DNA from: Vicugna vicugna
Taxonomy: Eukaryota
Assembly (NCBI GenBank): GCA_013265495.1
Contig: MU057989.1
Coordinates: 511,513 to 575,512, forward strand
DNA: 64,000 nucleotides
Direction: 5' to 3'
Shown here: piece after piece, positions 22,766-57,483 of the stretch
Layout of the letters: each line of letters begins with the position of its first letter
How positions within the stretch are numbered: the stretch's first letter is position 1
The notes under the pieces: model-generated
Databases searched by the model: none
Seen by the model: only the letters and a program-made list of their open reading frames with translations
What the model was told of the DNA's origin: nothing
Position numbers and translations under genes: made by a program

Positions 22766-23010
22766 CAGAGCTTCCTTCTCCTCCGCAAAGGCACAGGGCT
22801 CCTGGCTGCGGCCTCCCGTCCTTCAACAGTAACTGGCCCAGAGCTCCCAAACTGGTTCCACGCTGCTCCAGAGTCTGGTGGAAGCTTCGTTCACACAGAA
22901 GCTCGCGACTTCCCGGCAGGGCTGGCTGCTTTGCGGGTGCACCTGGAGTTTCTCATGCAGCCAAGGCCACTGAGAACAGGCCAGAGAGTCCTGGTTTCCT
23001 CCTCAGCCCC
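22766..23010 (-). pseudogene. Highly decayed second Myb/SANT-like exon remnant within ZSCAN32
   Basis: Frame-hopping translation GAEEETRTL...HEKLQVHPQSSQPCREVA...CERSFHQTLEQRGT...EPCAFAEEKEAL parallels the Myb/SANT exon at 22067..21586. Confidence 0.7.
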
Positions 23011-24165
23011 GGGGTGGGGGAGGCTGTGTCTGTCCCATCGGCTGAGTCTGGCTGTTGTGCTTCCCCCTCGAATTTTTTCTTCTCCATTTGATGGTTCATA
23101 CGCTTCCACTCCTCTCACTGCTGGGAGTCTGGCACCTTTTCCTCATGCTGAAGCCCTGAATATCTGGGGTCCCTGTTCATACTCTGATCCACCCAGGATG
23201 ACCTTCAGACCATGATCCAGGTTCCTTCTGCATGTGAAGATGCAGGAAGGAGACGTCAAGGCCGCAGCCCATGGCAGAGCCTGTCTCTGCATCTGATGGT
23301 CAGGGAGGCTGCTCAGAGGAGGCACAGCCCAGATGGGGCAGAACTGATTTGAAAAAAGGCAAGAGATCAGTCCTGAGACTCTGAGAAAGGGCTCTTGTTG
23401 CCTCCTGAAGGGCCTGGGCATAGAAGCCAACTGCCACAGTTGGATTGTTTTGTTTTTCAATCTTCTCTGCTACCCAGGCCACATCACAGCTGGGTGTGCG
23501 CACAGGTTCACTCCTCTCTCCCCTGTTGCCCTCAGAGTCTGGGCCTCACTGGCTACTGTCTGTCTCCAGCTCTGTGTTGCTCTTGCTGCCTCTCTGTCTC
23601 CATCCCCTGCTTATCTCCACCTCCCCACACTCTGTATCCCCACTGTCCCTTCTCTCGATCTTGCTCACTGTCACGCATGCAGTCCATCCCTGTCCCAAGG
23701 TGGTGCTTTCCCTCCTTCAGTCTCTGTCTTTCTTTCCTTGTCTTCTTTTCTCTGTGTCTTTGCCTACTCTGTGTTTTCCTGTTTATTTCCTTCTTTCTTT
23801 ACCTCACAGGCTCCCCACTGCCCCTCTGTCTCCTTTCCTCTTGGGTTCTTTCGGTCTCTCTCTTTCTCTCCGAACAACTGAACACATCCACTGTGGACCC
23901 AGAGGGAATGTGGACCCTTACCCAGTGAGGCATTTCTGTCATTCTTCTGTGTAGCATCCCTGCACAGGGCCCTCTGCGTAGGGCCAAGGTGCACCTGTCC
24001 TTCCTGATGGACGGATACGGCTCTGTCCTCACACGCGACTGGTCCCTGTAATGACACCGGGGTCTGCTGCTGCCAATAAAATAGCACCACTCTAGCTTGC
24101 GGTGGGGAGTAGGGGCAGAGGCAGGACCACAGTTATCACAGTGGGGCAAAACAGGGCAGGGGGAG

Positions 24166-24300
24166 GGGGCAGGATATAGCTCAGTGGTAGAGCGTGTGTT
24201 TAGCATGCACAAGGTCCTAGCTTCAATTCCCATTACCTCCATTAAGATACATAAACAAACCTAATTACCGCCCCCACCCCCACCCCCAGAAAAAGAAACA
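24166..24300 (+). mobile_element. tRNA-Ala-derived SINE (Vic-1-like)
   Basis: ggatatagctcagtggtagagcg...tagcatgcacaaggtcctagcttcaattcccattacctcca plus tail. Confidence 0.85.
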
Positions 24301-24659
24301 AGAAAGGGGGAGGTGAGGCCCCCAGGAGAAAGATCAGCGTGGATAAAGACTCATGTGATGATGTCAGTGACAGGACAAGAAAACAACCCGAGAGAAACTT
24401 AATGGACCACAGAAAAATCTTTCCAGCATCTCCGGGAAAGAAGGAACTTAGGGTGAGAGTGAGTGCAAGGTGAGATGGGAACCCAAAGAAACAAAAGGTG
24501 TCAACCACAGCTCACCTGAGCCCCGGCTGGGCAGAGTACAGCACCTGTCTCCTGGCGTCCAAGGCCCCTCTTCTGAGGAAGGTTCCTGGGAACCTGCGGG
24601 GTGAACCAGGCTAGGCGAGAAAACAGCCAAGGCTAGAGGGTGCCTCCACATCGCAGCCA

Positions 24660-24835
24660 CAGAGCAGGGGTTGCAAGTGGGGTCCCAGGCCAGCAGCAGC
24701 AGCAGCACCTGGGACTCATCAGAGGCGCACATTCCTGGACCCCACCTCAGACCTGATGCATCAGCAACTCTAGGGGTGAGGCCTGGGCATCCTCAGAGGG
24801 GTCTGATGCAGTCAAGTTTTGGGACCACTGCCCTA
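24660..24835. mobile_element. MER5A-like DNA transposon
   Basis: cagcagcagcacctggga...ccccacctcagacctgatgcatcagcaactctagggg...aagttttgggaccactg. Confidence 0.7.
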
Positions 24836-26839
24836 GCCAATGACCTGTCTCTGTGTTAAGAAGTTCCTTTTTCCAGATTCCTCCTGACATAATGGCTTTA
24901 AATTTTTTTTCATTCTAAAGAAATATGTATATGTTGTATTTTTAAAAATTTTAATAGAATACTGGGAAGCAGGGAGGAAATGTCCCATTGCCCAGCCACC
25001 CAGGGGTAACCACAGTGCTCTTAAAAATACTGCACGAACTCAATCCTTTTATTTTTCTTCAGAGCAAGATAACATATTCTGTCCCAGATTCCCACCCTCA
25101 GGAATAGTACAAAGCAAATGGTGCATTTTGATGACTTCTTAACAGAACTTCAGAGGACACTCAGAGGTCTGTGACCCTTTGGGATCCGAGCAGTCTGCAG
25201 GCACGGTGAGCTGAGGGAACACAACATGGAACAGAGTGAGTCCTGCCCCCCGTCTACTCAGACCGCAAAGCCTCATAAATCACACACCAAAGAGAACAGA
25301 TGTTCCCAAGTGTTAACAAAAATGCTAAATGGCCAAGTTAGTGTATTTACTTTGCTTAAAAAGATACAAAAGCAAATAAGCTCTTAGGTTTTCATTTCAA
25401 CAGCAGAAGCTTGCCTTTTAAAACAGCATGAAGACACAATGTTTTCCTCTAGGAATTTGAGTTACATAAAGATGAGCTGGCTACAAAAACTACTTAGCAA
25501 CTTGTAATGGCAGCTTTGAATTAAGCAGAAAAGGTAGCAGTGGCCTTCAGGACGATCTAGAAATGTATGCAGCCAAAGTGCTTCCCTGAAAATAACTTAG
25601 AAAGATAGAGCCTTGCTCTGTCTGTGGAGGGGAATATACTCAGCCATAAAAACAAAGTCATGATATAGGCTGGAAATGTGATAAATGAGAGAGGCTAGAA
25701 ACCAAAGGTAATATACTGTAGGATTCCATTTCTATGAAATGTCCAGAACAGGCAGATCAAAAAAGAGAGAATGAGGAGCAACTACTTAATGATATGGGGT
25801 TTCCTTTTGGGGGCATGAAACTGTTTTGGAAAAAGATAGAGGTGGTGATAGTCCAGCATTGTGAATGTACTAAATCCAACTGAATTGCTCACTTGAAATG
25901 GCTAATTTTACACCTCAATTAATTTTAATTAAAAAAAATTTTTTCTAAAAACTTAAGACAGGGCAAAAAAAGAGCTAGGGAAGAAAGGCAAAACTAATAG
26001 GGAAAATGTATTTTGGAAGAGATTAAGCTGGATGGGGAAGGGGGTTATGTCTTCAAGATTATGAAGAACTCCTCTGCCCAGGCAAGGTGAACATGCTCAC
26101 CTTGAATAACAGCTGACCCAGGAGCAATTGAGTTAAACTGTAATTAAAGAGAAGTGAACACACAAAGGATCTCCGTCCCTTATTGTAAGTGCTAGTATCA
26201 TCAACTAAAATCTGAAATCTTGATTTTTGGGTGTATTTCAAAGACATTTAATCTGGTACCCAGGGGCGACTGGAGCTCAGACCTGCATCTCCAGTAGGTG
26301 ACAGTTCCTCCCCACCTTGGGTGAGGGCAGAGGCCCCTGCTCACCTTCTGCCTGTTCCCATGGTCTCTGGTGTGAGCTCCGGGACCCCGCTGCGGTCCAT
26401 ACCTCCGGATGAAGCCCCTTTTCCAGGTGGGATCTCGGTGATTCTCTGGCTGCTCCCAAAGGGGCTGTCTCCTTATTAGGCACTTTCAAGTCCTTCCCAG
26501 AATCTGGGCCCTGAGAACAGAACCCATCATCTGTCACTACAAATTCCTACCTAAGTAGGACTTGACAGCCCCTGAGAGTGGGATTAAGGAACAAAGTGAG
26601 ACAGTCAAAGAGGAATATTCTCAGGGCCACTGTTAATAAAACAAAAATGAATGGAATTTGGCCACAATCACGTGGTGTCAAGTGATTTAGATCATTTACA
26701 TGGAAGTGCCCAGCATGGAGCCTGACACACACAAGCTCTAAGAGCGGTGTGCCTTTGCTAAGTGGGAACGTCAGCCTTCACTTTAGAAAGCCCCTGTGGT
26801 CCCCGCACTGCTGCCCTTTCCTCTCCCCCAAATCCAGTC

Positions 26840-27515
26840 ATCACCAAGTTCTACCTTCAGAAGATCCCCTTTCCATCCCTGCACCCCGAAGCCTGGTTCA
26901 GGACACTGTCCTCTGTCTGGACTGCTGGCATCGCCTGTTAACTGGCTGCGCTGCATCCTCTCTGCTGCTGAACCCTCTAATCCATTCTCTACATGGAATA
27001 GAGTAGGTAGCACGTATGATTTCGTCCGTTCCTGTTAGCACTTGTCTGTGGCTTCCCACGGCATGCACGATAAAAGCCAAACTCCTCTCTACAGCCTAAA
27101 AAGCACAGCCTTCCCCTCTCACATCCCACACCACTCTCCTGATCCTGAAGCTCTAGCCACAAACCTTGCCTTCTTTCTCAAACATGACAAGTCCCCGGCA
27201 GCCTCAGGCTCTTGGAGTGCACTGTGCTCTGTGCCTGGAGAGCCTCCTCCCAGCTCCTAGCACACCAGCTCCTCCTTCTCCCTCACATTTCAGCTCAGAT
27301 GGCCTCTCAGACAGGCCTGGCCCCCTAGCACCTCCCTACGGTCATTCTGTATCAGATCACCCCGCTCATTCCTTCAGAGCACTCACCTGAAGGTACCTTT
27401 GTTCATTTTCTTACTGTTTCCCCTGTGGAGTGTAGGCTCCAGCAACCCGGGGTCACACCTGTCTTGTTCACTGTAAAATCCCCAAAGCCTGGCATATTGT
27501 AGGTACTTAAAATCA
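26840..27515 (+). mobile_element. L2 LINE 3' remnant
   Basis: Ends gtcttgttcactgtaaaatccccaaagcctggcatattgtaggtacttaaa, a typical L2 3' end. Confidence 0.65.
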
Positions 27516-28325
27516 ACTTTTTTCTTTCACTGCCATCTTCATCCTTTAATTCCCAACCTCGTAACTCATCCTTAAAGTGACAGAGGAGAGATACTGAGAA
27601 GCAGAGTTCCCAGAGGTTGCTGAAAGCTTCATGGGGCCAGCGACCTCCTGGTAGCAGAACTGCCTGAAGCACTGGCGGGAAGCCTCGGAGTCAGGGCTGC
27701 TGCAGTGCAGGGATGACTTCTATCCCTGTGGGGACTCCTTGCTTGGGGACAGGTGTGCCTGAGGACTCCTGACTGCAGCCATGCTTTGCTTCAACTGACT
27801 GGCTCACTGGTTGCCACTTGCCCCCTGCAGATCAGATTCTATCCCTTTTCTTATCACTGGGAAGTGGTTCTCCTGGGTACCAGTGAAAAGTGCGTCTTTC
27901 TGGATTCAGAGACATGAGCACATCCTAGGTGTGCAGATTCAGTTGAAAAAGGCTCACCTCTAAAGTGAGGCTGAAGAGAGTGGAAAAAGACAGCATAAAA
28001 CCGTCCCACAGGCCTTCACTCTGGTTCTTACGGTTCCTTCCTATCCTTTCCCTTTACTCCCTCTTCAATCCAAGCTAAGGAACCAAAGCACTAAAAATAT
28101 CAACAACAACAAAAAAAGTTTTCTCCCTAGCCAATATTCTGTGGATGAATTCCTTAAACTGCTGCTCATTGTAGTCCAGCTGTTCTTTCTCACGATCCCC
28201 ACATGCCTGGGTCTTGTCCCTGCTCTCCTTACCCTCAGAAGCCTGGACCCACCCTCCCAAAGGCCACCTCTTCTTAAAGAGGGAAAAGTATTACCCTTTT
28301 CTTCACTATCAGGCCCTCCTCCCAC

Positions 28326-28345
28326 CACACACACACACACCACCA

Positions 28346-28385
<40 letters not shown>
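28326..28385. repeat. (CA)n microsatellite
   Basis: Directly visible interrupted CA tract. Confidence 0.95.
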
Positions 28386-28387
<2 letters not shown>

Positions 28388-29239
28388 TGTGGATGATAAA
28401 TGATTGTTCTGGTTTGCTCTTGTTTTCCAGCATTCCCTTTGCTCACAGCAGCATCTCCCTTTGTGAAAGAGCCTCTCCCTATTAGTCGTGTCCGGTCAGG
28501 CTACTCATTATAGTACCCTTCCTCCAACCACAGGAGTGGGTGACTGACACAGGCTGGGCCTGTCAAAATTCTTCTCTGCGATTTTCCACACAGGTGGGGT
28601 GAGAAAAGTTCCGAATTTCCCGGAAATTGCTAAACTGGGACGATGTAAGATGGGAGCTTTCTGCGGTTCTGTCCCACTCTCCAGTCCATTCCTCTTCCAC
28701 CAAAGGGGTGAGCTTGTTTACAGGAGTTTAAAAAAAAAAACTTTTAAAATCATGGATTCAGGTTGAATGGCCTTCACTTATATTCTCTTTACATTTCAAT
28801 GCAGCAGGAGGGGCTAGAGAAAGCAAAGGCATTGTTGTTAATGGTCCTTTTTAACGAAAAACGAGCGTCACAGAGCATCGTTCCTCAGCAGCAAGGCCAG
28901 GGCTAGAACCTGTACTCCTAGCCTTACACATTTTCATACAACCCACACCTTCTCTGGATGAAGAACAATTTAAGAAATACTGTCCTAGTTTCATGCAGAA
29001 GGCGGAGCCTGCCTTCGTCCTGACCCCTAACATTTCATTCATACTTAATTTAAAAATACTCCTCTCTCAAAAATGTGTTTCTTTCTGGTGACAATCCACT
29101 CAGCGGAAAACAGGATGAGGATGGGGAGTCGGGTTGATTCACTTTTCACTAGGCAAGGATGCACTGAGTACTCTTGGTGCACTCGGTGCGAGGGGTAGAT
29201 ACAGTGGCTGAAGAGGAATAGGAGAACAAGTCCTCCGGC

Positions 29240-30200
29240 TTCTGCTGCAGCGAGCCGGGGGTCACTTGCCGAAGGGGGCCTGGCTTCGGGCACAGAAATC
29301 AGGACGGCTCCGGCTGGCTCGGATGGGTCGCGCACCGGGGCGAAAGGCCGGGGCCCAAGAAGGTGACCGCGGAGAGTGTGATGGGCGCCCGGCCTTGGCC
29401 CAGCTGCCTCTGAGACGACTGCCAGCTGCAAGCGGCTCCCCGGCCGGCGTGAGGCCCAGCCGCGAGCCCCTGGCCGCCAGGAAGCGGAGCACTCACCGGA
29501 CGCGCGGATTCCCGACTCCCCAAGCTGGCTCAGCAGCGGGGCTAGAAGTCTGAGCCGGGAACCTGGCTGCAGCGAACCCACTGCGCTTGCTCGCAAGTCG
29601 TACCAGCCGACTACAACTCCCGGAGTGCACTGCGCCGTTCTCGCCAGCATCGACAGACCCAGCAGCCAATAGGCCAGAGAGAACGCCTCGAAGAGCCAAT
29701 CCCTCTTGGGAGGAGGCGGGCCCTCCCGTAGCGTACGTAGTTCCTCAGCCGCCAGTGGGAGTGTCCGTGACAAGCGGCTTCTGCCCCGCCCCCGGCCCTG
29801 GCTCCGGGTTCCTGGTCCCAGGTCCCCAGAGAGGTGAGTCCGCTGCAGGTGGGCGCGGGGTGCAGTTCTGTCAGCGCCGCTGCCGTCGCAGGTGCCTTCC
29901 CGAGCTCTCACCCGGCCACGTAGCTGAGCCGCGCTCCAGAGTGCTGCAGCTTCGCCAAACCCCGGGACCAGCTGGGGCGCGGAGTCGGATCGGTGAGCCC
30001 TCAGAGGCCGGACCGGCTGGGCCTCGGAGCCTTGGGGGCGACCAGCTGCCGCGCCCCCGTGTACCTTGCTCACCAGCAGGAGGCTGCCGCCAGCTGCTAA
30101 CCCCCGGCGCGCGCCGTGGCCTTCCTGGGCTCACCCTGTAGCGCCCGGCGAAGTGCTGACGGTCGGCCTAAGGAGGATGCGGGGGAGTTGTGCAGACTAC
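29240..30200. promoter_or_regulatory. CpG island, bidirectional ZSCAN32/ZNF174 promoter
   Basis: ZNF143 site ACTACAACTCCCGGAGTGCA at 29610-29629; CCAAT boxes at 29666 and 29696; GC box; divergent first-exon donors (minus CG|GTGAGT after 29497, plus AG|GTGAGT after 29833). Confidence 0.9.
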
Positions 30201-39245: not shown

Positions 39246-39762
39246 CGTATGGATTAGAAGCTATTTAAGGCCGAGAAGCTTGGTTTTCCACCATTTTAGC
39301 TTTTAGGCTTTGCCCACACCCAGTGGAAAGAAACAGGTGTCGAGTAATTGAAGAGTCAAGGCGCTCTGCTCCACCCTCAGGACCCATTCCTGCCTGAATC
39401 AGATCCTGGTGGCAGTCTGTTGAATGCAGCAGACAAAACCTCTTGGCTTTTGGACAGAGAGAGACTTAGTGGACTCAGTGGTGAGTGAAGACAGGAACTC
39501 TCCCTTAAATAAGAGCTTTTTTAACTTAGACCCAGTGGTGCTTTATAGTTTTTGGTGGCACTTTAGACTAATCCGCTGTCCCTTTCCCAGCGACTGTGTT
39601 AAATGTAAGAAGAGTTTATCGTCATTGTTAGGCCTGCCCCTTACCTCCCTCCTGTCACTGCCTCTCACTGGTCAGAGCCTCCTGATTCCTTATTCTGTTC
39701 CCACCTTTTTTTCCCAGGCCAATTTCACTGTTGCTTTTTTAAGAACTTCTCTAATCATACTT

Positions 39763-43550: not shown

Positions 43551-45802
43551 TCCTTACTTTCTACAGTATGTAAGTTTCAAAAACCCCAATAAAGGGTTAA
43601 CCAGAGGGCCCCAGAGTCTCACAAGGGTGGTACCATACAACACTGTCCCTGGGGCACCTGTAGTAGGGGCAGAGGGCCAGGCAGAGGCCTAGACGTTGGA
43701 ACAGAGGGTCGGGGACAAGGAGAGGGACAAAGATGGTGGAGGGAGGCCATTTGGGATGGGGGCAGCTTTAAGGAGGGTGGAACACTAAAAATAAAGGTCC
43801 CAAGTTAGGGTTAGTTATCTGGGTCCCCCTGGGAGGTGTGGGGCCACAGACGTGTCCGCACATGAGGAGGCAAGGACGGGCAGTGTGTTTTCATCAGTGG
43901 GAGGGAAGGCCTGAATTGAAAAGTTCTGAGAACAGCACAATCTTAGGAAATGGCAGAGCCATTCACTTTGACTCTGAGCTGCCCATATATCTCTCAAGTT
44001 TGGTTCTTCCTTGAGCCAAAATAAAAAGTGACCCTCAGAGCTCAGTGGTATGGATTCTTGTTGGAGGCCTGGGAAACAAGGTCCCTGGGGGAAGAGGAAG
44101 CAGAGATGTCACCTATGCTCAGGGTACCTCCCCATCCCCTGTCTACTCTTTCTCAAGGAGAGGAGGAGCTTATCACCCATCTGCTGTTCACTCTCTGGGT
44201 CTCCTCTGGCCCTTCTCACCCAGCATCCTGGTTTCCTGGGCTCTCTCTGCAAATCTTCTATCAGGGTTACTGCCTCTCAACACCGTCAGAGTGTTCATGC
44301 TGAAGCCAGTGTGGTCTCTCAGATAGGATGGTCAGGAGCACTCCAGCTGCAGAAGATCCAGATCTGCTCTTTGCTGGGCATCTCTGGCCTGAGCCACTGA
44401 CAGCAGTCTCCAGACGTGGCTACAAGCCTCTTCAGCCCAGCGACCTCCTCACAGCAGAGGAGGACTAGTCCACTGATAGCAGTGTTTCAGGACTAGGATC
44501 AAGCTTGCAGGTTGGATTCCTGCCCCCAGATGGCATCTTTTATCTGGAGGCTTTCTATGTCTGGGGGATGGGGAGTTCCAGGGTACCCAAGTTTGCAACC
44601 ATCTTAAGGCTCAGAGGATAGCCTCCTACCAGCAGGGGCTGAACCTGGGAGTGTCACAGCCTCTCTGTTCAGTATGGTTGGGCATCTGGGTTCTCCAGAT
44701 TCTGGCTGTTTTTCCCTGGAAAGAGATAGTACAGATGAGCAGGTAAAGCTTACAGTATGTGGGGTCAGCTGACACATTAGTTGAGGCCTTTGCAAAGTTC
44801 TCCATTAGGATCCTGTGCCCTTTCCAGAAGCCTCCAACCAGTGAATGCCAAGTCACTATTTAGCTCTCTGATCTCCTCAAAAGAAAACAGGCTCCCTGAC
44901 CTTGCTGGCAAGATGACACCCCTCTCATAGCATAATGTACCTCTTCTCTATAGCTCTTAACACAGCTGCAGTGTCCCACTCACTTGTGATTAACACATCT
45001 CCTTAGAAAGTTTAGCAAAACTGTAAACTCATGAGAGACAAAGGATCTCTTCACAAAGCTACCACTCATCAAGTCACCCAAACCAGAAACTTCCAAGTCA
45101 TTTCTTACTCCCTGCTCTCTCACCACCACCAAGTGGTCACTTTTTAAAGCCACCCCATCTTTCTCAGTCCTGTGACCCCTTCTACAGGCCGTCTCACTCA
45201 CTCTATTGTAACAACCTCCTGAGTGTCCGTCGTCTCTGGGCTTGTCCTGATCTGCAGCATCTGGCTACAGAGTCATCTCCCCAAAGCAGGTGATATCGCA
45301 ACTCTGTCCCTGCCTTCCTGTTGACCCGGGCCAGTGCTATTGGATAAGGGTGTAGACAGTGGAGACAGGAAGAAGCAGTCAGATATGAGAGATATTTGAG
45401 GTCAAATCCACAGGACTTGATGATTGTTAAATTTGAGGAGCAGAGGAAGGAGTGTGTGTTGGTAGTGTGAGCAGTTGTCTAGATGTGGCACTACATACTG
45501 GGGCAAACAGATCAAGGACTAAAAGCATGAGTTGGGTTCTGGGCATGTGTTTTGATGCCTCAGAGACACTGAAAGAAGATCTCTCATAGGCACTTGAATA
45601 TAGAAATCCCGAGTGCAGGAGAGGAAAAACTGGAGCAAGACAGAGTGAGGTATTTGTAGTCATGGAAGTGGCTAAGCTGGCTTGGGGAGAACATACACTC
45701 AAGTGAGCCTAGGATACATTCTAAGTAACCAGAAGCATGTTAGAATTTGGCTTCAGAGCACACAGAAATCAGGCAAGGAGACTGGCACCGGCTCTAAAGA
45801 GG

Positions 45803-46272
45803 TGTTGGCTTAAAAAAAACAAAACCACACACACAACTTCAAAGTTGTGAGTCGAGTTTATTCAGTGCATTACTGAGGACTGTAGCTGGGAGACCAGATG
45901 GGCTTTCACGCTGAGAAACTGTTCTGAAAGAATTGGGGGGATCAGCACATACGTGATTTCTGACAAAGGGGTACACATTCAAGCACACACTTCAACAGAA
46001 GGTTGCTGTCAGTCACAAGGAACAGAAATCTTAGTTAATGGTTTTAGTGCTTTTCCAAGTACAGGAAGATGCAAGAACTGGGGTTCATAAAATTTCCTTT
46101 CAAAAATATCTATCTGAAAGTCTGTTCTGCCAGTTTTCCCACAGCACAGAGTGCCTCACTCCCGATCTCCGCCCTGAACAACTGTCAGCGCGTGTTGAAC
46201 GTTGGCGACTACAGTGTCTAAAGAACTCAAGCCTTGTAGAACTGGACAGCCAGCAACGTTCTTTAGTTGGCA
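45803..46272 (-). mobile_element. ERV solo LTR (ERV1/MER41-like)
   Basis: TG...CA termini (tgttggc / ttggca); minus-strand AATAAA about 60 nt from the LTR end; tactgaggactgtagc...gggagac resembles MER41-like LTRs of artiodactyls as recalled. Confidence 0.65.
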
Positions 46273-46339
46273 GAAATTCTAGCCAGGGTTAGTGAGAAGC
46301 ACAAAGTATCCCTTTGGAGAAGACAGAAACACACAGGCA

Positions 46340-46960
46340 GGGCAAGCCCGTAACTTGATACTGCCAAAGCGGGGTTAGGGCCAGGAAGGTGGCGCTGGGC
46401 TCCCCTTCCCTCCCCCAGGGCCGTCAGTGCCTAGCTCAGCGAGATTCCGGCTGGCTCCCGACAGTCACATCACCACAACCCTTCCCTTAGTGCGGAGGGA
46501 GAGACCAGAGGAGCCCCTCAGCCAACGCTCTCACGCCGCCGCTGCCGCCTCACGGTGTCTGCGGAGACTCCCATCCCTCAGCGAGTGATGGGGGCGCACC
46601 GGAAGCCAGACAGAGCAGCCGCTGGTTCCCACGGCCCCAGGAGCACGTAGCTACTCGGCCCGATGAGGGCCCCGGAAGTGAGAGCACTACTTCCGGTTCC
46701 CAGCCTTGTGAGCCGCTCTAGCGCGTCTCGTCTCTTTAGCACTTCCGCCGGCTTGCGGGGTTGGTGGCCTTGCCCGAGCCGCTAGGTCTCTCGGAGGCCG
46801 CGCAGAGCCTTATGGGAGCCCTACTCAGCGCACTCTCGCCTCCCAATTTCCATTTTAGGCGGCGACCCATGCGGGCCACCGGTGGCCTGCGTGGCCGAAG
46901 GTTTTTGTCCCTGTGCCGCCGCCACAGAGCAAAGACTGGAAGAGAATTCGACGTCTAATG
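46340..46960. promoter_or_regulatory. CpG island at the 3' end of ZNF597, positional equivalent of the human ZNF597:3' DMR
   Basis: Dense CpG; ETS/GABP sites CCGGAAGTG 46672-46680 and ACTTCCGG 46689-46696; TGCCGC at 46543 and 46914; minus-strand AATAAA at 47177-47182 just beside it. Confidence 0.75.
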
Positions 46961-49900
46961 CGACATCTATTGCTGTCTTCTGTTGCAGTGCTGGAATTTT
47001 CTTCTGAGTTCCGAAGAGCAGAGGATTTTACCGCCAGTGTTAAAAGAGCCTAAGTTATTCATTAATCCTCTCCAAACCACAATCCCACCAGTCTTCAAAA
47101 TTCATCTCATTAAAAGTACTAAAGTGTAAAAAAATTTTAAAGTTCACTTCATTGCCATCATGATTAAAAAAAAGCATTTATTGGATGCCAAATTGCACAT
47201 CAGATAGACATAATCATTGCCCAGTGAGAGCTTGCACTCTAGAGCTAAGACTGATGAGAATACACCAAAAACTGTAAAATCAAAATATTAAACAGACAAA
47301 CAGCACAAGTGCCTACAACAAATATACTTTCCAAGGTATCCAAAGGAACTAGAGATTGCAGCATATTTTCAGGTTTACATAACTGTATATTTATTTCACA
47401 TCCCCATCCTCCCCAGACTGTTAATACAAGGTAGGATGCCCCCTCCCTCCAAAAGCTAAAACACGTGTAGTCTGATGGGCCGTGAAAAGATGGATAAGGG
47501 TCATCTTGTTATCAGATCAGTAGCTCTTTCAATCTACAAAACTAAAACAGATGAGTATACACACTTCTCATGAAGATCATTGAGTTACCCTTTAAACAGA
47601 TAGTCCAAGCAAAAACACCTTCCAACTGAAATCCTCTAGGCATAACAAGTTTAATGAAAAATTTCAAAGAGACTCTTTATTCAGATAAACTATAACTTGC
47701 TTTGTACGCATATCCAGTGAATTGGCAGATAACTTGGAGCAAAATCTGCAGTATCAGATTGCATGACCTGTTGCAACTATCAGAATAATGCCACTTAGTT
47801 ATACGTAATCTCAGGAGTCAAAGACTTAAAACGGCATTTGCTATGAAATGTCACTTGTTTTTAGTTTTAACTCCCTGAATTACTGGCTTAGTCATTTTCT
47901 ATGTTAAATGGGGAGATGTAATAGACTATCACTTATTGCAACAAAGCTGTAAACAATACTATTTTGAGTCCGACTCCTTCAAGAAAAACAATTCCACCAT
48001 TTCTTTAATTACAAAATGTAAACTGTTGACATCTAAATTCCATTGGAATGATGCTTTTCATCATCATCATGTTTTCATCAATGATGGCTGTTACAGAACC
48101 TGAAATTCCAGCAGCCCAGTAGTCACGTTAAGGACTTGTTTGATACACATTTTCATCACTGCATCAGCAACCAAAACCAAGACATTTGGTCAAGAATTGA
48201 TTTCTTTAGTACAAATTTTTCACCCTGCACAATGTGTCAACATCCATGGTGCAAAATGTAGCGAGCCAACTGTTTTTAACAATAAACTCCTGCACTGAGT
48301 GTTTCATCCCTGTATTAACTTTCACCCAAGTACTGATGAAAACTAACATGGTAGGCTAATGATATCTCTGGGTTGATGACCATCTGTGGAATGTATGTCT
48401 GTCAACACTGAACAGAAGGGAGAAAATGCCATAAACATAAAAACAGCACAGATCTCACTGATGGGCACTGACCTCTCCCTTCACCTCCTTGGACTAAAAG
48501 CAGCTTGAATTACATCTAGCAAATTACATCCGGTAAATGTATTTAGGTGAAAGTTCCCAGTAAAGCAACAATTGAAAATATGCCTCTTTCACAGTAACTG
48601 ACTCAGGTTTTTTTTCCTCCACATACCAATCATTAACAATATTACACCAAAAAGGCATTTTAATTACATTCATGTATATATTAATGTCTCCATAAAAGAT
48701 ATTTTTCTACCCTCTTATGGAGGTTTGGCATAATCTTCCAAAATCTAGAACATAAACATGTAAAACTGAAGTTAATTGTGAAGGAAGCCTCAAAAGTGAC
48801 TTCCTATATTGAATGCAGAACAGCATTTCTGGTGTAAATTCTCAACTTCCCCTGTATTTTCTTAGGAGCAAAGGAAAGAATGAGAGCTTCCATATTTCAC
48901 GTCAGCCCCATTCTGTCCAAGTACCTTCTACAGTTGTCTTCCCTACTTCCTTCTGCAGCAGCTCTGCTACTGGGGGCCTCTTTCCTGGATTCATTCCCTA
49001 TCCTGCAGCTCTTTAGTCAACTGAAACGTGGGAGCCCCTGGTATGTGCTGGTGGGAGGCACTGTGTCTGCTGCTCCCACCAAAGGCAGAAGCAGGAGAGC
49101 AGAGAGACAGTCTGTTCTGATGTTCAGCAAATATCCCAGAGCTGACTGATAAGAAACCTAACTGGAGATTATCTTTCTACACAACTCTAAGCCCCTTTCT
49201 GGAGACTTGCTGGAGAAAAACCTACAGGAGACCTCGCGTTTTTATTCAAGGCCCCGAAGCCCTGGCAGACTGGTGTCCTGTATCCTAAGAGTGGAGACAT
49301 CTGAAACAAAGAGCCAAGTGTGACCTTGACATACAGAGCACAGGGCCTCAACTGTGGATCTGCAAACAAGGAGTTAAACAAGAAGAAGTTGGGGAAAAGG
49401 AGTGGGTGAGCTGGGTCAGGGCTACTGGTTTCTGTTTCCCTTACCAACAGTATCTTCCTGCCTCTAACACGTGAGCTTGCAGCAATAGCTGGCATCTTTC
49501 TGTACATTCAGTTCTCAGTCTGCTGTTCAGTAGAGAGACTACATCCTCCGGGTACCAGTTTCCACCCAACTAGTCCTAAAGTGGCCTGTTATTATTGCTC
49601 ATGAGATTTTCCAGTGATAATCCCATTTTAGTAACTGCTATACTTTTATACTATTTAAACAGAATAAAACCATTCTCACATCCCAATCAAAAACCCCTTT
49701 CAATGCTGTTTTGCTGACGGGTACCCAATCAATTTTGCCTTAAAGAGAAATTCCTTATGAATGTATATTTACAAGATTCCTTGGTTCTTTAACATTAATA
49801 ACCATTCCGTTTAACAATATTTTGCTCTAGTATTTATATTTAACAGTACTATCTAAATACCTACATATTTTCAAGTACTTTGATTAAACTCTAACAATTT

Positions 49901-50926
49901 TCTATGTGTATCTCTCTTTGGATATGAGGAAGAAAAAAAAATTTTTAAACCAAAACTCAGCTAAGACTTTAAAGACTATACTCTGTAGAGTTTGCAATCT
50001 CTGATGATAGGGATGGAGTTTGAACTTGAAGTCCTGGAGAGAATACAAGGATAGTCCTTTCCTGTCAGATTTACTCTGAAGATTAAATAATACACCTAAC
50101 GCGTCCAGCGTGCTCACTAAACAAGAGTCACTGTTACTCGTTGCAAGGCAGGCAATGTGCTTTGGTAGACACTTGGAGGCAAATCCTCTTACAGGGAAGC
50201 AAGTACCTTTCCCTTGGTCAAGTCCAGACACCAGAAAGGGCTAGTCAGACTGCCAAAATCCCTTCCAAACACTTGAATCACAAAGGCCAGTGGCATCAGA
50301 TCCGAGAAGAGGAACTCCACCGACACCAACAGCTATCTCAACACTAACTAGTCCAACCTATTTGGGAACTCTTCACCTGGCGGGGGGAAAAAGTTTCCAA
50401 ACTGCTCCAGAAATTCACATGTAAAACAAAAATCTCATACAAACATTACATTTAGATTGTTATAGCAAAAAAAAAGTATGAAACAGATATAAAAGTATTT
50501 ACTTTCCTAGATCCTAGATCTGCAGAACTAGTAAACAATTAATAAATTTTCCTTCCAAAACTTACTTAGAAACCATGTAGACAAAATTAAAAGAACTCTA
50601 GCAATACCTCTATTTTAATGAAAACTGAATTTTTTTTGAAGTTCTGCATCATGCTCCAGCTCACACAAATGGACTCTGAACAGTAACTGAGTTACTAAGT
50701 CAGAATTCTGGCTTCATTCACGAGCTGTGACATGGACTCTGCTTCCGAGACTCTAAAATAGAAATCATGGTGCCCAATCAAGGTTGTGGTGAAAATGAAA
50801 TGCTTTCTTACATGGAAAGTGTGTAAAGTGCTTAGCACAGTACCTGGCACTTACACTGGGGTGACCGTGCCCCAGTTTTCCGTTTAGATGCTGAAAAGCA
50901 CAAACATTCATGAAAACTTGCTCTAT

Positions 50927-52023
50927 TTACATGGCGTTTCTCAAATGGGTTCGCTCATGGGCAGTGAGATGTGTCTTCAACCTGAAATGTTTCCCACACA
51001 CAGTACATTTTAAAGGGTTCTCTCCTGTGTGGCTCTTCCAGTGGTGGGCAGGCTCTGAGGCCGAGAGAAAACTTTCCGCAGGCGTTTTGCACGTCTGGGC
51101 CTTTTCCCGTCTATGAGTGCTTTGATGGGAAATGAGCTCAGAGAGATGAAGACAGGTCAGCGGACACTCGGGACATTTGAAGGGTTTGAATTTGGAGAAT
51201 GAAAGCATATTTCCCCCACAGTCGCTGCAGTGTTCAGCACTGTCCTCGTGGCCTTTCTCGGGGAGGGCAGGGAGTGCAGGCTGCAAAGAGCAATTCCTGC
51301 CCGGGCTGTGCAGATGTTGGGGGGCTGAAGCCTGCCTTTTCTCAGGCAGAGCGAGGTTTGTTTGCTGACCGAGATACTTCCCGTGGGCTTTTTTGGCAGC
51401 ATGGGTCTTCTGATGCTGGGCCAGTCCCGGGAGCCACAGAAAACCTCTCCCACATGTGCCACAGGTGTAAGGTTTCTCCTTTCCGTGGACATTCATGTGC
51501 CGAGACAGGTGTGAGTGCTGGCGGAAGGTGCTGCTGCACTCAGCACATTTATAAGGCTTCTCCCCGGTGTGGATTCTCCTGTGTGTTCTCAGGTTGGCTC
51601 GGTGATTGAACATCTTCCCACAGTCCCCACAGTTATACTTTTTCTCTCCTGAATGCATTTTCTGATGCAGAACCAAGTATGAACTATCACTGAAGCTTTG
51701 GTTACACTCAGGACACTTGTATGAATTTGTGGCTTCTCCCCCAGGAAATTCAAAAATTTCAGAAAGTGTGCTGGTTCCTAAACACTGAGATAGCTCTACC
51801 AACGGGGTATGGTTTTCGATAGTAACTAAAAGACTTATGAGCCTTTTCTTGCAGGCAGAAGTTCCACCTGATATTTTCCTTTCGAGGTTTCCAACTCCAT
51901 GCTCAGAGGATTTTTCTGGGCAATAGACAAGAGGAACAGTGATGGAGTATTTTTCTAAGGCAAGCTCTTCAAGTCCCATTGATTCGAGACTTAGCTGCTG
52001 ATTAATCTCAATCTTGCCTTCAC
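50927..52023 (-). CDS. ZNF597: ZNF597 terminal coding exon (C2H2 fingers); spliced CDS 1257 nt, 418 aa
   Basis: EINQQLSLESM...LLVTIENHTPLVELS...CGDCGKMFNHRANLRTHRRIH...FRQHSHLSRHMN...GRGFLWLPGLAQHQK matches ZNF597; open frame to TAA at 50927. Confidence 0.95.
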
Positions 52024-53975
52024 CTCGATAAAAACAAAACAAAGCAAGACAATAAACACTCTCAAGTAGCACGGGGTAAAGAACAAGCTAAGGTAGTTAC
52101 ACAGAGGACCACGAAACTCTAGACGGTTTATTCTATTGGCCAGACCCTGCTAGGATGGCCAACAAAACTCAGGCCTTCAAAAAGCATTCCTTTTTAATAT
52201 TTTCCCCAACATTCTCAATTTATAAAGCCACTGTATCAGTCCAAAAGGGGTCTTTCCATCCAAAGCAACAGCCCTAAGAATGCCCCAGCTCACTGCCTGG
52301 GAAGGGTTTCTGGGCTCCAGGACAGTGTGCAGGAATCCAAACAGTACTCAGTGGTTTTGCTGATTCGAGGAGACAACATTCAAGGATGCCAAGGTGGCTA
52401 GAATTAGACAGCAAAACACAGAGAAGAGGCAGATGCCCAGGCACAGAGCTCTGGGCATCCAGGCTGGGTCCCCTTAAGACTCTAGCTGTGTACTCATCTG
52501 TAAGTCCATGTGAGGAAACTACCCCAGGCCAGGGAAAGACCCACCAAAAAGGAACAGAAAGAACAAGCTACAGAGTTCACGTAATAGTTCAATAGTTCTT
52601 GTTCCTACCAGCCAAAGTGGAAAGACCCCCTAACACACAGAGCATCAGGCAGTATCCTTAGAAAGACTTTGCCTTAGTAGCAGGCCACATCAGCCCTAGA
52701 CTACAGTTTGAGCTGAACACACCCTAACAAAGCAACAAGCAAGCTTTAAAAGGAACATATTGATCCCAAGTAACTTAAATTAGCATCCCACACCAAAGTC
52801 CAAAAGTAATTTTAAAAATATAACAAAAGCTAGCATCCAACAGAAAACTCACAACGTCCAAAATCCAATCAAAAATCACCAGGCATGTAAGAGGCAGACA
52901 AATATGACCCATAACTAGGAGCAAAGTCAGTCAACAGAAGCAGACCCAGATATGACACAGATGATGAAACTAGTAGAAAGAATGTTTGAAGAGCTATTAT
53001 AAAAATGCTTCATATGTTCAAGAAGGTAGAGGAAACTAACATGGTAAAGAGAAGTAGAAAATACAAAATGTGAGTTATGAGAAAGCTCAAATAGTCAACC
53101 CTAGTCAAGGATAAAATCTACTTAGGCACAGGAACATTTCTATGTATAGTTCCTCTCAGGTGAGAAAGGCACAGTACTACCTTAAGAGTAAATCAATTTT
53201 GAATCTTTAGCCAATAATAATAATTCATACTAATGGAGTTTCACAAGTAAAGTTATGAATTAACCATAACAAATATTTGGAAAGATAACCATGTACTGCC
53301 ATGTCTTAGGCAAAAACCACAATCACAGTACTAGCCAAGATTTGTGGCTTTTACGAGTCATTTCATCTTTTGAAAACTGCTCTCCCTTAAAAATAAAATA
53401 AAATAAAATAAAAATTTTAAAATTAAAAAAAAGGCTGGTAGACAAAGACAAAAACTTACAAGGAGCAAGAGAAAAATGACTCACCAGATACAGGAGAACA
53501 ATAATGTAATTAACAGGTGGCACCCCATCAGAAACAATGAGATGGGGGCGAGTGAAGGAATTGAAAACAAACAAACAAAATGCTCTCAAATAAGAATTCT
53601 ATATTCAGTAAAACAGTCCTTCAGAAATGACAGTGAAAGAAAGTTATTTCCAGGAAAATACTCAGAGAACTTATTGCTGTCAGAAACATTTGATGAGAAA
53701 TACTAAAGGAAATTTTTTCTTAATGAAAAGAAGTCGCACCAGCAAGTAAAAAACTGACTTATTTGAAAAGAAATAAAGCATGTTGGAAATTTTAATTATA
53801 TAGGTAAGTACAAAAAACTTTTTTAAAAAATGCTCTCATGCAAGTGCTTTTCATATCAACATAAATCACTCAGGGATGGGTCTCACTCCCCCATACCAAC
53901 ATGTGGATGAGATATGAAATCCTAATCCTAGAACTGACAAAAGTTCCAAAATGCAGGAAAAACAAATTGTCTTAC

Positions 53976-54102
53976 CCATTAAGGCCTTATCCATGAAACA
54001 CTCCTGTGCCGTGTCTCTGCTGAGGGACCTCTGGGCAGGGTGCAGACTCACACACTCCTCTTGAGAAAAATACACAGCCAGGTCCTCAAACAGCACTGGT
54101 CC
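53976..54102 (-). CDS. ZNF597: ZNF597 KRAB-A exon (127 nt)
   Basis: cttcag|GGA CCA: GPVLFEDLAVYFSQEECVSLHPAQRSLSRDTAQECFMDKALM G|gtaag. Confidence 0.93.
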
Positions 54103-54965
54103 CTGAAGCAACATGAGAGTCAATCTCAGGACAAGAAGCCAGAAAGCCACCCCCTTAGTCAGTGTGGGAAGGCTGGGAAGAGCTAGAAACATCAGAGGCA
54201 AAGGAGAAAAGGGCTTGGTATAAAAGATCCTGCGTGCTGGGGAGAGGGTATCAATGGGTCCTAAGGGCTGGGGGATGGGGATTGGGAAGGAGGGAGTGAA
54301 AACGAATGTAACTTTGGAGGCAGAGGTTTAAGGACCAAAAGGGTAAATAAACTGTGAGAAGTTCTAGAAGAGACTATTAGAAGAGAAAAGATGAGGGAAT
54401 GACTCTCAGTGAGGGAAACCACTACGTAGGGACTCTCTAAGGTAAAGGAGAAGACTAAGCAGCCCGGGAAGAATCATGAACGGCATGGAAGTTCCAGCGT
54501 TCTCCCAACATCCTTCCTTTTGCTGGTCCGTCTCCTTCCCCATGACACTCATTGCTAAGCTCACTGTAGCATCATATCCAGACCTATTCCTCCTTCCGGA
54601 AGTTTATCAGTCCTATAAATCAACAGAACTTGGGACATGATTAAGAATCACTTGGGGGTTCTGTTTGTTTCTGTTTATTCAACAGATGTGGAATGAAGCT
54701 TAGAAATTTGCAAGTTTGAGCAGCATGCCAGGGAGACACTTAGGTACACTGTTACAGCCTTCTCCAGCCGGCCTTGATCCCAGTTGGTGGTTCTTAGAGG
54801 AAGGCTCTGATAAGCCATTTCTTCTACCTGCCTGGTAGGAACATACACAGCTTGGTGAAAGGGCTATCTGGGGATCAGGAACCCTCGCATTATGATGGGT
54901 GAGGCCAGGCAGAGGCCAAAAAGGAGTGACCGGAACTTGGACAGAGAGAAGGGACCGGGTCTCAC

Positions 54966-54998
54966 CTGAGCCCCGGTTGTAGGGAGTGTGGATGCCAT
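54966..54998 (-). CDS. ZNF597: ZNF597 first coding exon (MASTLPTTGAQ)
   Basis: gagATGG context; CAG|GTGAG donor; exon acceptor before 55052; upstream non-coding exon donor G|GTAAGT after 55222. Confidence 0.88.
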
Positions 54999-55149
54999 CT
55001 CGGGGGGATGGAAAAACCTTCTTCAAGTCGCCACGAGGACTTCGGGACCGATCTGGGAGGGAAGAGAATAATCCTTGGAGGGACCAATTCGCTTGCAAAG
55101 CTCCTCCACGCACCCCTGGGCTCCCTCGCTTCCCCACCCTTTTTAAGAT

Positions 55150-56110
55150 CTGAGCCGATGGCTTCTCTCCCTGGCCCAGCGTCGGAAAGGCCGACTCCCG
55201 GGCCAGCCAGGCCCCACTTACCGCTCCGAGACTAATGATCTCAGAAAGCCTCCCTCCACCCAGGAAGAAGCAGCAAAAAGCTACGCCCGACAGAGACTCG
55301 AGACTTAGACAGCACCGACCACCACTAGGCGCCACCGCTAGGCTCCCACGCTCCCACACTCCCCTACGCTGGACCTGCCGGGAAAGCCGCCGGATGCGGC
55401 CCGCCTCCCAAGTTTTTACGCAGCCTTGTCCTGTGATTGGCCAGCGTGACGCCGGAGGGGGCAGGCCTTCTCGTGTGTTGACCAATAGAGTCCCTCAATG
55501 GAGGACACACATGGCTCGCTGGGCATGCTGGGAGTTGTAGTTTTCCTTAGTTTTTCAAAATAAGTGTTTCCGGTTCCGCTGCCTGGGTCTCCCCTGTGAG
55601 CTCCTTGCCCGCCGACCCGATAAAGTGGAGCGTTAGGATTATCACAGAGGGTTGTAATGTTTCAGGGAAGGAGGAAAGCAAGTAGACGGGGAGAATTCGG
55701 AACCAGAAAGGGTACGGTATTGAAATGGGGGTTCGGCCAGCAGTGCCCTGTGGGTCTGAAACTTGAGTCCCGTCGAGTGGCCAGGAGTGCGGGTCCCAGT
55801 CTTGCCCTGAGCAGTCCACTGTGTCGTGGGTGGACTTCGGGGCCGTGGAATGTAAACGGGTGTCTTCTGCGTGGACAAAGTTCTGGTCGACGTAAGCTGG
55901 GTTGCTAGTCTCCGACTTCAAGTATTACGCCGGCATTGTGCCCGGCGACTGCAGCCCAACCGAGCCAGATCAGACTCAAAAGCCACAGCGGACCTCAAGC
56001 GGTAGCGGAGCCGTCGGGTTGCTTCGCAGGACGTTGTATGCCTCCTAATAGCTCTCATTCGACCTGCCCCATCGCCACGTATTTTCTACTTTACTGGCAC
56101 TAGGTGCCGT
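55150..56110. promoter_or_regulatory. CpG island, bidirectional ZNF597/NAA60 promoter
   Basis: ATTGG at 55436 and CCAAT at 55482; ZNF143 site ACTACAACTCCCAGCATGC on minus at 55523-55541; ETS-like TTCCGG near 55568. Confidence 0.88.
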
Positions 56111-57483
56111 GGTGTAGGGCTTTGGAATTAGGAAACAGCTCTTTCCCCAGCTCGGCCACTAATTGCTTGTCATTTTGGCCCCTATACAGCTTTGCTTTCC
56201 TCATCTGTGAAGAGCTGAGAATGCCTCCCCTCAAAGAGTAGTTTCAGAGAAGTTGTCAATTTACAAAGGTGTTTGTTGGAAAAAAAAAAGGATGATATTT
56301 ACCTTAATAGAAAATTCTGAGTTTGAATATATTGTCTTATTCTAGTGACAGGCATGTTCCTATACCTAAAAGGTTAATCAAGGATTAGTTGCCTGGTTAT
56401 TGAAACAGTATTATCAGAGCTGACAAAGTAAGTAGTGGGATTTGGTGGAATTTCAGATAGGATAGTTTCAGCTGCAAGTAACAGAAAACCCAACAAAACA
56501 TTCAAAAGTAGGGCAGTTACAGGTTAGTTAATGCAACATCTTAATGACACTGTCGTGGTCCCAATGCTTCCATATTTCTCCTCCACCATCCTAAGCATGT
56601 TGGGGAAGGCAGCAGTGGAATCCACATAATACAGACAAGCATTGAGTCATGTACCAATCCAAAACAGATCATCATCAAAAGTAAAAAGACTACCTACTGT
56701 AATTGGTTTTGGTCGCCTCCAGGTGACCCATTCTCTCCTGACCATCTACCTGCACAAATTCGGGGCTCTTTTGGAAAAGGGAAAGAAGGAAGTAGGATAG
56801 ATGGGTAGTTCACAGTATCTGCCAGGAGTGACATCTTGACAGCTACAACTGGGCCTTCGGGGAATGGGACACAAAATAAGTATCTGGTGGATATGCAGGA
56901 GGAAGGAAAAAGGTGCTGAAAGGACAAGTGGAAGAATGATCAGGTCAAACTTTCCTACAGGCTAGAACAACCCAATGTATAAGTGTTGAAATGAGCTGAC
57001 AGCTTGGTACATGGAGCTCAAAATCAAAAGTATGTTCACCATAGGGTCACAGGGCTGCTCCAGTAGTCATCTTTCCCCCTTCCTTTGCACTTTTATATTC
57101 AATGGTATTCTTATGTCAGGGATGTCTCGTTTGGGGCTCAGATTGTCCTGATTTTGGTTTTTGGCCCTTTCACCAAGAACAAGTGGCTCTAATGGCCCTT
57201 TCCTTTGAATTCTGTTCTTATTATTACAAAGAGATAAACACACTTTCCAATCACTAGAAATTATGCTTGTAGTATTAACTCAATGAATAACCAGAAAGAG
57301 AGTTATCTCTGAAACAGGAGAGGAAATGAAATCTTCCCTATACCTTCTGACTTCCAAAACTAAACAAGCCGATTAAGAAAGAAGAAGCTTGAAAGCTTGA
57401 TCTTGCTAGAAATAAATAGTTGAGATACAAAGTCTATGGTAGTTCAAGACTAAAAGAGTGACTGGATTACATGCCTGACTTCA

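Follow-up and report, generated by a model that had tools for sequence, protein, structure and literature searches.

How did the CpG island that lies beyond the 3' end of ZNF597 originate, and by what means might it act on the genes beside it? In the human ZNF597/NAA60 domain a maternal germline DMR (ZNF597:3') is accompanied by a nearby secondary, paternal DMR, and the human papers, in the sections drawn on here, treat the former as an upstream regulator and give no mechanism. We analysed a window of 64,000 nucleotides of Vicugna vicugna DNA containing the corresponding region of a camelid. Our explanation, on which we remain evenly divided when it is taken as a whole, is that the camelid island is the orphan promoter of a dead gene, is orthologous to the human germline DMR, and acts through the steps set out below.

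The vicugna locus and its 3' island

The window is an ordinary camelid ZNF174-ZNF597-(NAA60) locus, with ZNF597 on the minus strand (Table 1). The 365-residue translation of the last exon is 99.7-100% identical to ZNF597 of Vicugna pacos (the lower figure being that from tblastn), and the three coding exons together give 418 amino acids, as many as the alpaca protein has. Another donor, at 55222, hints at a first exon that is non-coding. The promoter island has CCAAT boxes and, at 55530, a motif that we take to be of the ACTACA/ZNF143 type. No NAA60 coding exon was found within the window, and that name rests on synteny.

Table 1. Positions of the features discussed, numbered from the first base of the window
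Feature	Position	Strand	Remarks
Decayed SCAN zinc-finger first coding exon	44220..44715	-	acceptor before 44715, ATG 44602, donor TGG/GT after 44220
LTR-like element, TG...CA ends	45803..46272	-	abuts 3' island; AATAAA 45862-45857
3' CpG island, putative orphan promoter	46340..46990	.	probable orthologue of human ZNF597:3' DMR
Donor-like GTGAG in 3' island	46554, 46535	-	
Donor-like GTGAG in 3' island	46677, 46707	+	
ETS sites of 3' island	46599, 46672, 46689, 46741		
Non-coding block common with human	47138..47159	.	anchors island to human 3' DMR amplicon
Candidate ZNF597 distal poly-A signal	47177..47182	-	predicted
ZNF597 last coding exon, C2H2 fingers	50927..52023	-	stop codon 50929-50927
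ZNF597 KRAB-like exon	53976..54102	-	translation and GT/AG edges
ZNF597 start-codon exon (coding part)	54966..54998	-	
Promoter CpG island, ZNF597 and (by synteny) NAA60	54873..56214	.	counterpart of human ZNF597:TSS-DMR

The initial annotation of this DNA had likened its layout to that of the human domain, and in gene order, gene orientation and island spacing the two do agree. The 3' island, said to lie about 4 kb beyond the ZNF597 stop and about 9 kb from the promoter island, is 3.9-4.6 kb from the one, and its centre is 8.9 kb from that of the other. The human DMR, like the camelid island about 600 bp in size, is placed ~4 kb past the end of the ZNF597 coding sequence, and in the two species the distance beyond the long 3' end of the gene is about 0.2-0.5 kb. 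The camelid island differs in having 50 CpG in 651 bp, where 29 CpGs are given for the human DMR, and perhaps in the LTR-like element on its left edge.

The tie to the human DMR was made here by way of primers. One published human primer matches the window at 21 of 22 bases in the block common to both species (the best of 200 shuffled primers reached 17). It is the only one of four human genomic primers to exceed chance: another, at 15/20, has the expected place and orientation yet a chance-level score, and two are without a match. The top match in the window to the human pyrosequencing primer (14/16, with no null) falls in the island and covers the ETS site at 46689. The 3' island is very probably, as its sequence suggests, orthologous to the human ZNF597:3' DMR, and the correspondence drawn in the initial annotation holds to that extent. 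A conserved 19-mer sought in metagenomes was found at 11 loci, none of which aligned past the seed or simple repeats.

In composition (GC 0.64, CpG o/e 0.76; sliding-window boundaries 46151-47073) and in motif content the island resembles a promoter. The paired ETS sites described earlier, CCGGAAGT at 46672 and ACTTCCGG at 46689, are present, and CCGGAAG occurs three times against 0.17 expected from 2000 dinucleotide shuffles per island (P about 0.0005, uncorrected for the nine motif patterns tried on six segments). The two ZFP57 hexamers (TGCCGC, at 46543 and 46914) are also where they had been reported, and their number is not above chance in the island (0.70 expected, P 0.16), so we reject them as evidence of imprinting. 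The hexamer recurs, as had been cautioned, in other islands of the window (once in the 15-kb island, twice in the 30-kb island and once in that at 37 kb, with none in the ZNF597 promoter island); nor is it strictly required, human DMRs being maintained by ZNF445 too. A duplication shared with another promoter island of the window was considered for the 3' island and rejected, all six alignments lying inside the shuffle range.

Where does ZNF597 itself end? The TTTATT reported at 47177-47182 (a minus-strand AATAAA) is present; the 3' UTR that it would give measures about 3.75 kb and ends ~190 bases from the island. Two things speak for this signal: read along the minus strand, the human-shared block follows 18-39 bases after it, and in human the DMR is placed 0.5 kb past the ZNF597 gene end (PMC6454695). 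Minus-strand AATAAA or ATTAAA motifs number 10 in the interval 43.0-50.9 kb, nine of them from the left flank of the island to the ZNF597 stop. The element abutting the island, which by eye we take to be LTR-like, has no clean target-site duplication and is single-copy within the window; its AATAAA is followed by a GU-rich tract (U+G 0.72 downstream), a strong minus-strand poly-A site at 45857, between the SCAN exon and the island.

A decayed SCAN exon and the proposed origin of the island

The minus strand holds, 1.6 kb to the left of the 3' island, what appears to be a SCAN zinc-finger gene's first coding exon, with stops and frameshifts and with splice sites that look intact. Four comparisons bear on its identity: the Pfam SCAN model (E 0.0044, short of the curated cut-off), tblastn with the ZNF174 exon of the window (E 1.2e-5), PDB 1y7q (E 3.9e-5), and a DNA alignment in which the remnant pairs with the ZNF174 SCAN exon over the stretch between ATG and donor (score 123, the shuffles reaching at most 43). 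SCAN-domain homology combined with disabling lesions points to an unprocessed SCAN zinc-finger pseudogene. ZSCAN32 was considered for the remnant and rejected, as it is at 23.9-27.8 kb, with 65-92% identity to the hippo protein (remnant, 32%).

HMMER with the remnant gave 13 hits, of which 10 were looked up and eight are named (ZSCAN23, ZNF500, ZSCAN12, ZNF213, ZSCAN32, hypothetical or uncharacterised); there was no clear intact orthologue of the dead gene among those 10. Identity to the best hits is 31-36% for 12 of the 13 and 51%, over 34 residues, for the other. Of 86 candidates from a word-indexed search for homologues of the read-through remnant, none scored. Neither Pfam read-through nor tblastn detected a downstream C2H2 finger exon at 37.5-44.2 kb; the dead gene may have lost it by decay or by deletion.

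Genes of the ZNF174/ZSCAN32/ZNF500/ZNF213 type have a first coding exon composed, like the remnant, of an ATG, a SCAN domain and a TGG/GT donor, and a CpG-island promoter about 1.5 kb upstream, a place that the island beside the remnant would take; the stops, the frameshifts and the lack of a detected finger exon set the remnant apart from them. The minus-strand donor-like sites of the island lie 1.8 kb from the acceptor of the remnant (1.35 kb once the LTR-like element is left out), and in the ZSCAN32 of the window the donor at 29497 is about 1.5 kb from the SCAN exon (whose start was placed by eye). The spacings are thus alike, the suggested link between exon and promoter being drawn from spacing only, and the 3' island is the sole CpG island from the remnant to the last exon of ZNF597. 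Because of this ZSCAN32-like spacing with no other CpG island in between, and because the remnant is identified by four comparisons that include the DNA alignment with the ZNF174 exon, we consider it quite probable that the island began as the promoter of a SCAN zinc-finger gene, now dead, which would have lain tail-to-head behind ZNF597, on the same strand.

In the first step of our explanation, ETS factors would still drive transcription from the island, leftward and away from ZNF597, and the product would probably be a short non-coding RNA (about 1.1 kb) ending at the poly-A site at 45857. Against a fixed leftward direction, CpG-island promoters are often bidirectional, and we also count against it the donor-like sites on both strands (with a third on the plus strand at 46291, just left of the island), none of them being above threshold with a rough donor matrix, and the weak GC skew (-0.06 to -0.11); as evidence of direction, skew and donor scores are uninformative.

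A search of sequencing runs with 329 words sampled from 43900-47100 is not counted as evidence. Among the 24 matches listed, 14 runs hold 0.34-0.35 of the words (three recorded as RNA, from one study, and 11 guessed to be RNA, from four others), and five, of a kind not recorded, hold 0.94; the other five are raw-read runs outside the index. With assumed start positions, the expected shares (raw, then scaled by 0.94) are 0.34/0.32 for a minus-strand RNA from the island to the poly-A site at 45857, 0.37/0.35 for a first exon plus the remnant exon past its donor (0.27/0.25 if spliced), 0.39/0.37 for a ZNF597 UTR running to 45840, 0 for ZNF597 ending at 47160, and 0.15-0.23 for plus-strand RNA starting inside the island. 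About 3% divergence at full cover, or other LTR-like copies, would fit the observed shares equally, and we reject them as evidence of transcripts.

Is the domain imprinted, and how might the island act?

The initial annotation held that the imprint is older than the primates. The point is not a new one, having been made already in cattle: bovine ZNF597 is reportedly maternally expressed (Gu 2020, PMID 31874365), the gene is counted among the known imprinted genes of cattle (PMC9334527), and Holstein blood shows a maternal bias of NAA60 at one SNP (PMC6215656). Cattle are, like camelids, even-toed ungulates; we lean slightly towards the domain being imprinted in camelids.

The likeliest alternative, which we consider somewhat unlikely, is that camelids do not imprint this locus: the island would be a plain orphan promoter, free of methylation, whose CpG content ETS binding preserves, and imprinting would have arisen separately in humans and cattle or been lost in some lineages. 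In pig day-21 embryos, ZNF597 promoter methylation was 40.3 and 40.4% in parthenogenetic embryos and 41.8 and 41.4% in controls, a ratio of 0.97, so that this promoter showed no parental difference, and both groups lay above the 24-27% of the ZNF174 promoter (PMC11734915, S2 Table). A paternal secondary DMR, as estimated with a camelid proxy, should cut parthenote methylation by tens of points. ZNF597 and NAA60 also go unnamed in the text and one supplement of a genome-wide parent-of-origin scan in pig. The chance-level ZFP57 count and the higher CpG content than that of the human DMR fit the same view. The mouse gene is reportedly not imprinted, and a human paper labels the gene human-specific. 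Maternal DMRs, however, can remain CpG-rich. The three cattle reports, too, stand against a locus without imprinting (PMID 31874365; PMC9334527; PMC6215656), as do the conserved spacing and non-coding block.

If the orphan promoter does belong to an imprinted domain, how would its two copies come to differ? In the second step, oocyte transcription of ZNF597 would pass the poly-A site ~190 bases away and cross the island, laying down maternal methylation by the known transcription-H3K36me3-DNMT3A route; we give this a little less than an even chance. In the third, which we regard as doubtful, the unmethylated paternal island would damp the ZNF597/NAA60 promoter 9 kb off by promoter competition or Polycomb marking, with DNA methylation coming after and steady antisense transcription playing no part. 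We favour this explanation because of the human primer anchor, the hierarchy of 3' DMR over promoter DMR (one patient had lost methylation at the 3' DMR and gained it at the promoter DMR; PMC5392596) and the allelic marks of human soma, where the block carries maternal methylation and H3K36me3 and paternal H3K27me3 (PMC9255983) and the last exon of ZNF597 is methylated maternally (PMC6454695); because of the cattle reports; and because of the oocyte-transcription logic of the ZNF791 locus of pig and cattle (PMC11734915). That locus is similar in being a zinc-finger cluster, patchy over lineages, with an embedded CpG-island promoter whose methylation is put down, as a proposal, to oocyte transcription, and dissimilar in that the proposed driver is an upstream LTR and the methylated promoter is that of a live gene (PMC11734915), whereas at ZNF597 the LTR-like element is downstream and faces away and the gene of the promoter is dead. 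We count against the explanation the pig promoter result, the single primer of four above chance, and the want of a detected intact orthologue or finger exon.

The initial annotation had instead made the paternal island an antisense (here plus-strand) promoter whose transcription through ZNF597 silences the common promoter; such transcription could be steady or confined to the early embryo. A maternal germline DMR with a secondary paternal DMR nearby is indeed the pattern of a transcription-driven secondary DMR, and the ETS-rich island has plus-strand donor-like sites. GPR1-AS (Liz)/ZDBF2, an example of brief antisense transcription in the early embryo, likewise has a maternal germline DMR controlling a secondary paternal one; it differs in needing a paternal transcript towards the secondary DMR. 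The gene remnant, however, sits on the other side of the island, on the minus strand, and the human somatic marks are the reverse of those that we would expect of steady paternal transcription, which argues against it (PMC9255983; PMC6454695). In stranded RNA, SNVs unique to ZNF597 or NAA60 are almost only maternally expressed, and no paternal antisense ZNF597 lncRNA is reported in the cited part of that study (PMC6589892). The claim is therefore unsupported and we think it improbable, although a brief embryonic antisense RNA may exist.

Less probable still is that the island falls within a longer ZNF597 3' UTR or read-through ending at 45857, or within plus-strand read-through from ZNF174, and is a methylation-sensitive poly-A or boundary switch, as at H13/Mcts2, more than a promoter. 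The strong poly-A site directly to its left and a long human NAA60 isoform that covers ZNF174 and ZNF597 on the plus strand (PMC6589892) favour such a switch, but the ETS cluster and the promoter-to-exon spacing indicate a promoter, and nine candidate poly-A signals (47177-50614) precede the island.

A possible control element from a dead gene

By itself, the preserved layout matters little, since it repeats a known human domain and imprinting in cattle is already reported. What is new is the decayed SCAN exon beside the island, and with it a proposed origin and direction for the control element of a domain with known links to the growth restriction of UPD(16)mat and to one Silver-Russell-like case. 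Extended beyond camelids, the proposal would be that the ZNF597/NAA60 imprinting control region is a recycled promoter whose SCAN gene died early in placental mammals, that ZNF597, by oocyte read-through, writes its own maternal imprint, and that the active paternal copy, facing away from ZNF597, shuts the ZNF597/NAA60 promoter; in this full form we think it unlikely. Were it so, the leakiness of the poly-A site and the survival of the island would set which lineages are imprinted (human and cattle as against mouse, and perhaps pig), and new imprints would have arisen by the death of a gene, instead of by the insertion of a retrogene or an LTR.

The 3' island and its probable human counterpart

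The last exon of ZNF597 matches that of Vicugna pacos at 100% (99.7% by tblastn), and the next-best matches (dolphin, hippo, donkey) reach only 73-76%, so the source is a camelid; the three coding exons together equal the alpaca protein in length. Ruminant ZNF597 models (P0054, P0091, P0116, P0118, P0072, P0077) are more diverged, at 54-67% identity, and several span just 62-69% of the camelid last exon, which suggests that C-terminal fingers may have been lost or have decayed in ruminants. As no NAA60 coding exon was found within the window, that name rests on synteny.

Features of the window, with coordinates and remarks
Feature	Position	Strand	Remarks
Olfactory receptor frame	9760-10476	plus	238 aa; apparent frame change ahead of last helices; presumably OR2C1, by synteny; possibly a pseudogene
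CpG island	14720-15392		ETS, CCAAT and NRF1-type motifs; no neighbouring coding exon found; perhaps a further orphan or non-coding promoter
ZSCAN32	20060-29500	minus	left of ZNF597; looks broken in this camelid: SCAN exon with frame shift at about residue 50 and similarity gone past residue 61 (near 27600); finger exon (20.1-20.7 kb) with frame changes
ZNF174 SCAN exon	~30.6-31.0 kb		left of ZNF597; near-identical by eye to ZNF174 structure sequence
Duplicated ~35-base stretch	about 39490-39530, 40450-40490		copies about 950 bases apart; possibly another repeat remnant
Decayed SCAN exon	44715-44220	minus	pyrimidine-rich acceptor, ATG at 44602, TGG|GT donor
LTR-like element	45803-46272		470 bp; adjoins 3' island, between it and the decayed exon; labelled by eye
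3' island	46340-46990		GC 0.64, 50 CpG, o/e 0.76
ZNF597 gene	50.9-55.0 kb	minus	last exon matches Vicugna pacos ZNF597
ZNF597 coding exons	54998-54966, 54102-53976, 52023-50927	minus	sum 418 aa
Promoter island	54873-56214		common to ZNF597 and, by synteny, NAA60

Every feature listed in the initial annotation is present: both islands, the two ZFP57 hexamers, the paired ETS sites and the poly-A signal. The 3' island lies 3.9-4.6 kb from the ZNF597 stop codon, its centre 8.9 kb from that of the promoter island. With P values uncorrected over 54 motif-by-segment tests (2000 dinucleotide shuffles), ETS sites are enriched in it (3 vs 0.17 expected, P 0.0005) and ZFP57 hexamers are not (2 vs 0.70, P 0.16), the hexamer rate being similar to those in three other islands of the window.

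The human ZNF597 3' DMR was described as an interval of ~600 bp, 4 kb 3' of ZNF597 (PMC3975056), and a later annotation puts it 0.5 kb from the gene end (PMC6454695). Five human primers (Table S1 of PMC8142457) were compared with the window. One genomic primer agrees at 21 of 22 bases with 47138-47159 (best of 200 shuffled primers, 17); a second has a tied best match at 46516, in the expected orientation, at the chance level of 15/20, and the two other genomic primers found no match in the window. The best match of the bisulfite sequencing primer, scored without a shuffle null (14/16), covers the ETS site at 46689. Position and the strong 21/22 anchor make it very probable, short of full alignment, that the 3' island is orthologous to the human DMR.

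A decayed SCAN exon beside the island

To the left of the island lies a feature that the initial annotation overlooked. All six reading frames of 37.5-50.9 kb, with X written for stops, were compared with Pfam, and the one match was a minus-strand SCAN domain at about 44.24-44.45 kb, which with E 0.0044 does not reach the curated cut-off. A tblastn search with the ZNF174 exon of this window (E 1.2e-5) and four PDB matches, all SCAN proteins (best E 3.9e-5), confirmed it, and its DNA aligns with that ZNF174 exon all the way between start codon and splice donor (score 123, against at most 43 for shuffles). The exon is riddled with stops and frameshifts. There was no clear intact orthologue among 13 matches, no downstream finger exon detected by the six-frame Pfam reading or tblastn, and, in a coordinate-prefix search of a pig table, no zinc-finger transcript start between ZNF597 and ZNF174 (PMC11734915).

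A CpG island ahead of the SCAN exon marks the start of both ZNF174 and ZSCAN32 here, and the sole CpG island in the corresponding position for the remnant is the 3' island. A distance of 1.8 kb separates its donor-like sites (46554 and 46535) from the remnant acceptor (~1.5 kb for the ZSCAN32 equivalent). From this layout we infer that the 3' island was the promoter of the dead SCAN gene, facing away from ZNF597. The LTR-like element carries a minus-strand AATAAA (45862-45857) with a GU-rich downstream tract (U+G 0.72, ranking second among 10 sites), a strong poly-A site at which a leftward RNA of ~1.1 kb would naturally terminate. In a sequencing-run search, 14 contig sets, on record as RNA or guessed to be so and drawn from five studies, contained 0.34-0.35 of the words of 43900-47100; leftward RNA to 45840 would give ~0.34, and plus-strand RNA from inside the island at most 0.23. 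This is a lead only, as an equal share could come from a diverged camel or from words of repeats.

Possible imprinting and proposed action of the island

That the imprint is older than primates, as initially proposed, agrees with reports from cattle and so is not news: ZNF597 is named among known imprinted genes (PMC9334527), its bovine expression is given as maternal (PMC12247366, citing Gu 2020), and NAA60 shows maternal bias at one SNP in Holstein blood (PMC6215656). In the pig, by contrast, the ZNF597 promoter window (chr3:38786446-38790446) is ~40% methylated without parental difference: day-21 parthenotes gave 40.3 and 40.4%, controls 41.8 and 41.4% (PMC11734915, S2 Table). With camelid CpG spacing as proxy and flank methylation assumed to be 75%, a paternal DMR is predicted to shift the mean from ~14 to ~50%, and therefore a difference should have shown; these data count against uniform conservation. 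The pig ZNF174 promoter, at 24-27%, lies below the ZNF597 promoter in both groups (PMC11734915), and word searches of the text and one supplement of a pig genome-wide scan did not find ZNF597 or NAA60 named (PMC12969872). With the cattle reports positive and the pig data negative, imprinting of the domain in camelids seems plausible, somewhat better than an even chance; its absence there is a less likely but live alternative.

One human patient had lost methylation at the 3' DMR and gained it at the promoter DMR (PMC5392596), and the former has been described as a probable control region (PMC8142457); the human literature examined does not state how it acts. We suggest that in the oocyte ZNF597 read-through past the gene's own candidate poly-A site, ~190 bases from the island, would methylate the maternal island, and that the paternal island would remain an active leftward promoter, damping the shared promoter via competition or Polycomb marking, a state that DNA methylation may later fix. 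A brief embryonic antisense RNA is a less likely but live alternative to this chain. Steady paternal antisense transcription is unlikely, being opposed by maternal hypermethylation and H3K36me3 across the human block, with H3K27me3 on the other allele (PMC9255983), by maternal methylation of the ZNF597 last exon (PMC6454695) and by the almost entirely maternal origin of RNA unique to ZNF597 or NAA60 (PMC6589892).

The camelid layout adds a further species to a known domain. At the remnant or island, a pseudogene or non-coding RNA may already be marked in genome browsers; a dead-gene origin of the 3' DMR was not met in the literature surveyed, in which subscription journals were thinly covered. 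Descent of the island from a dead gene's promoter is a specific and cheaply testable idea on the origin of the control element.
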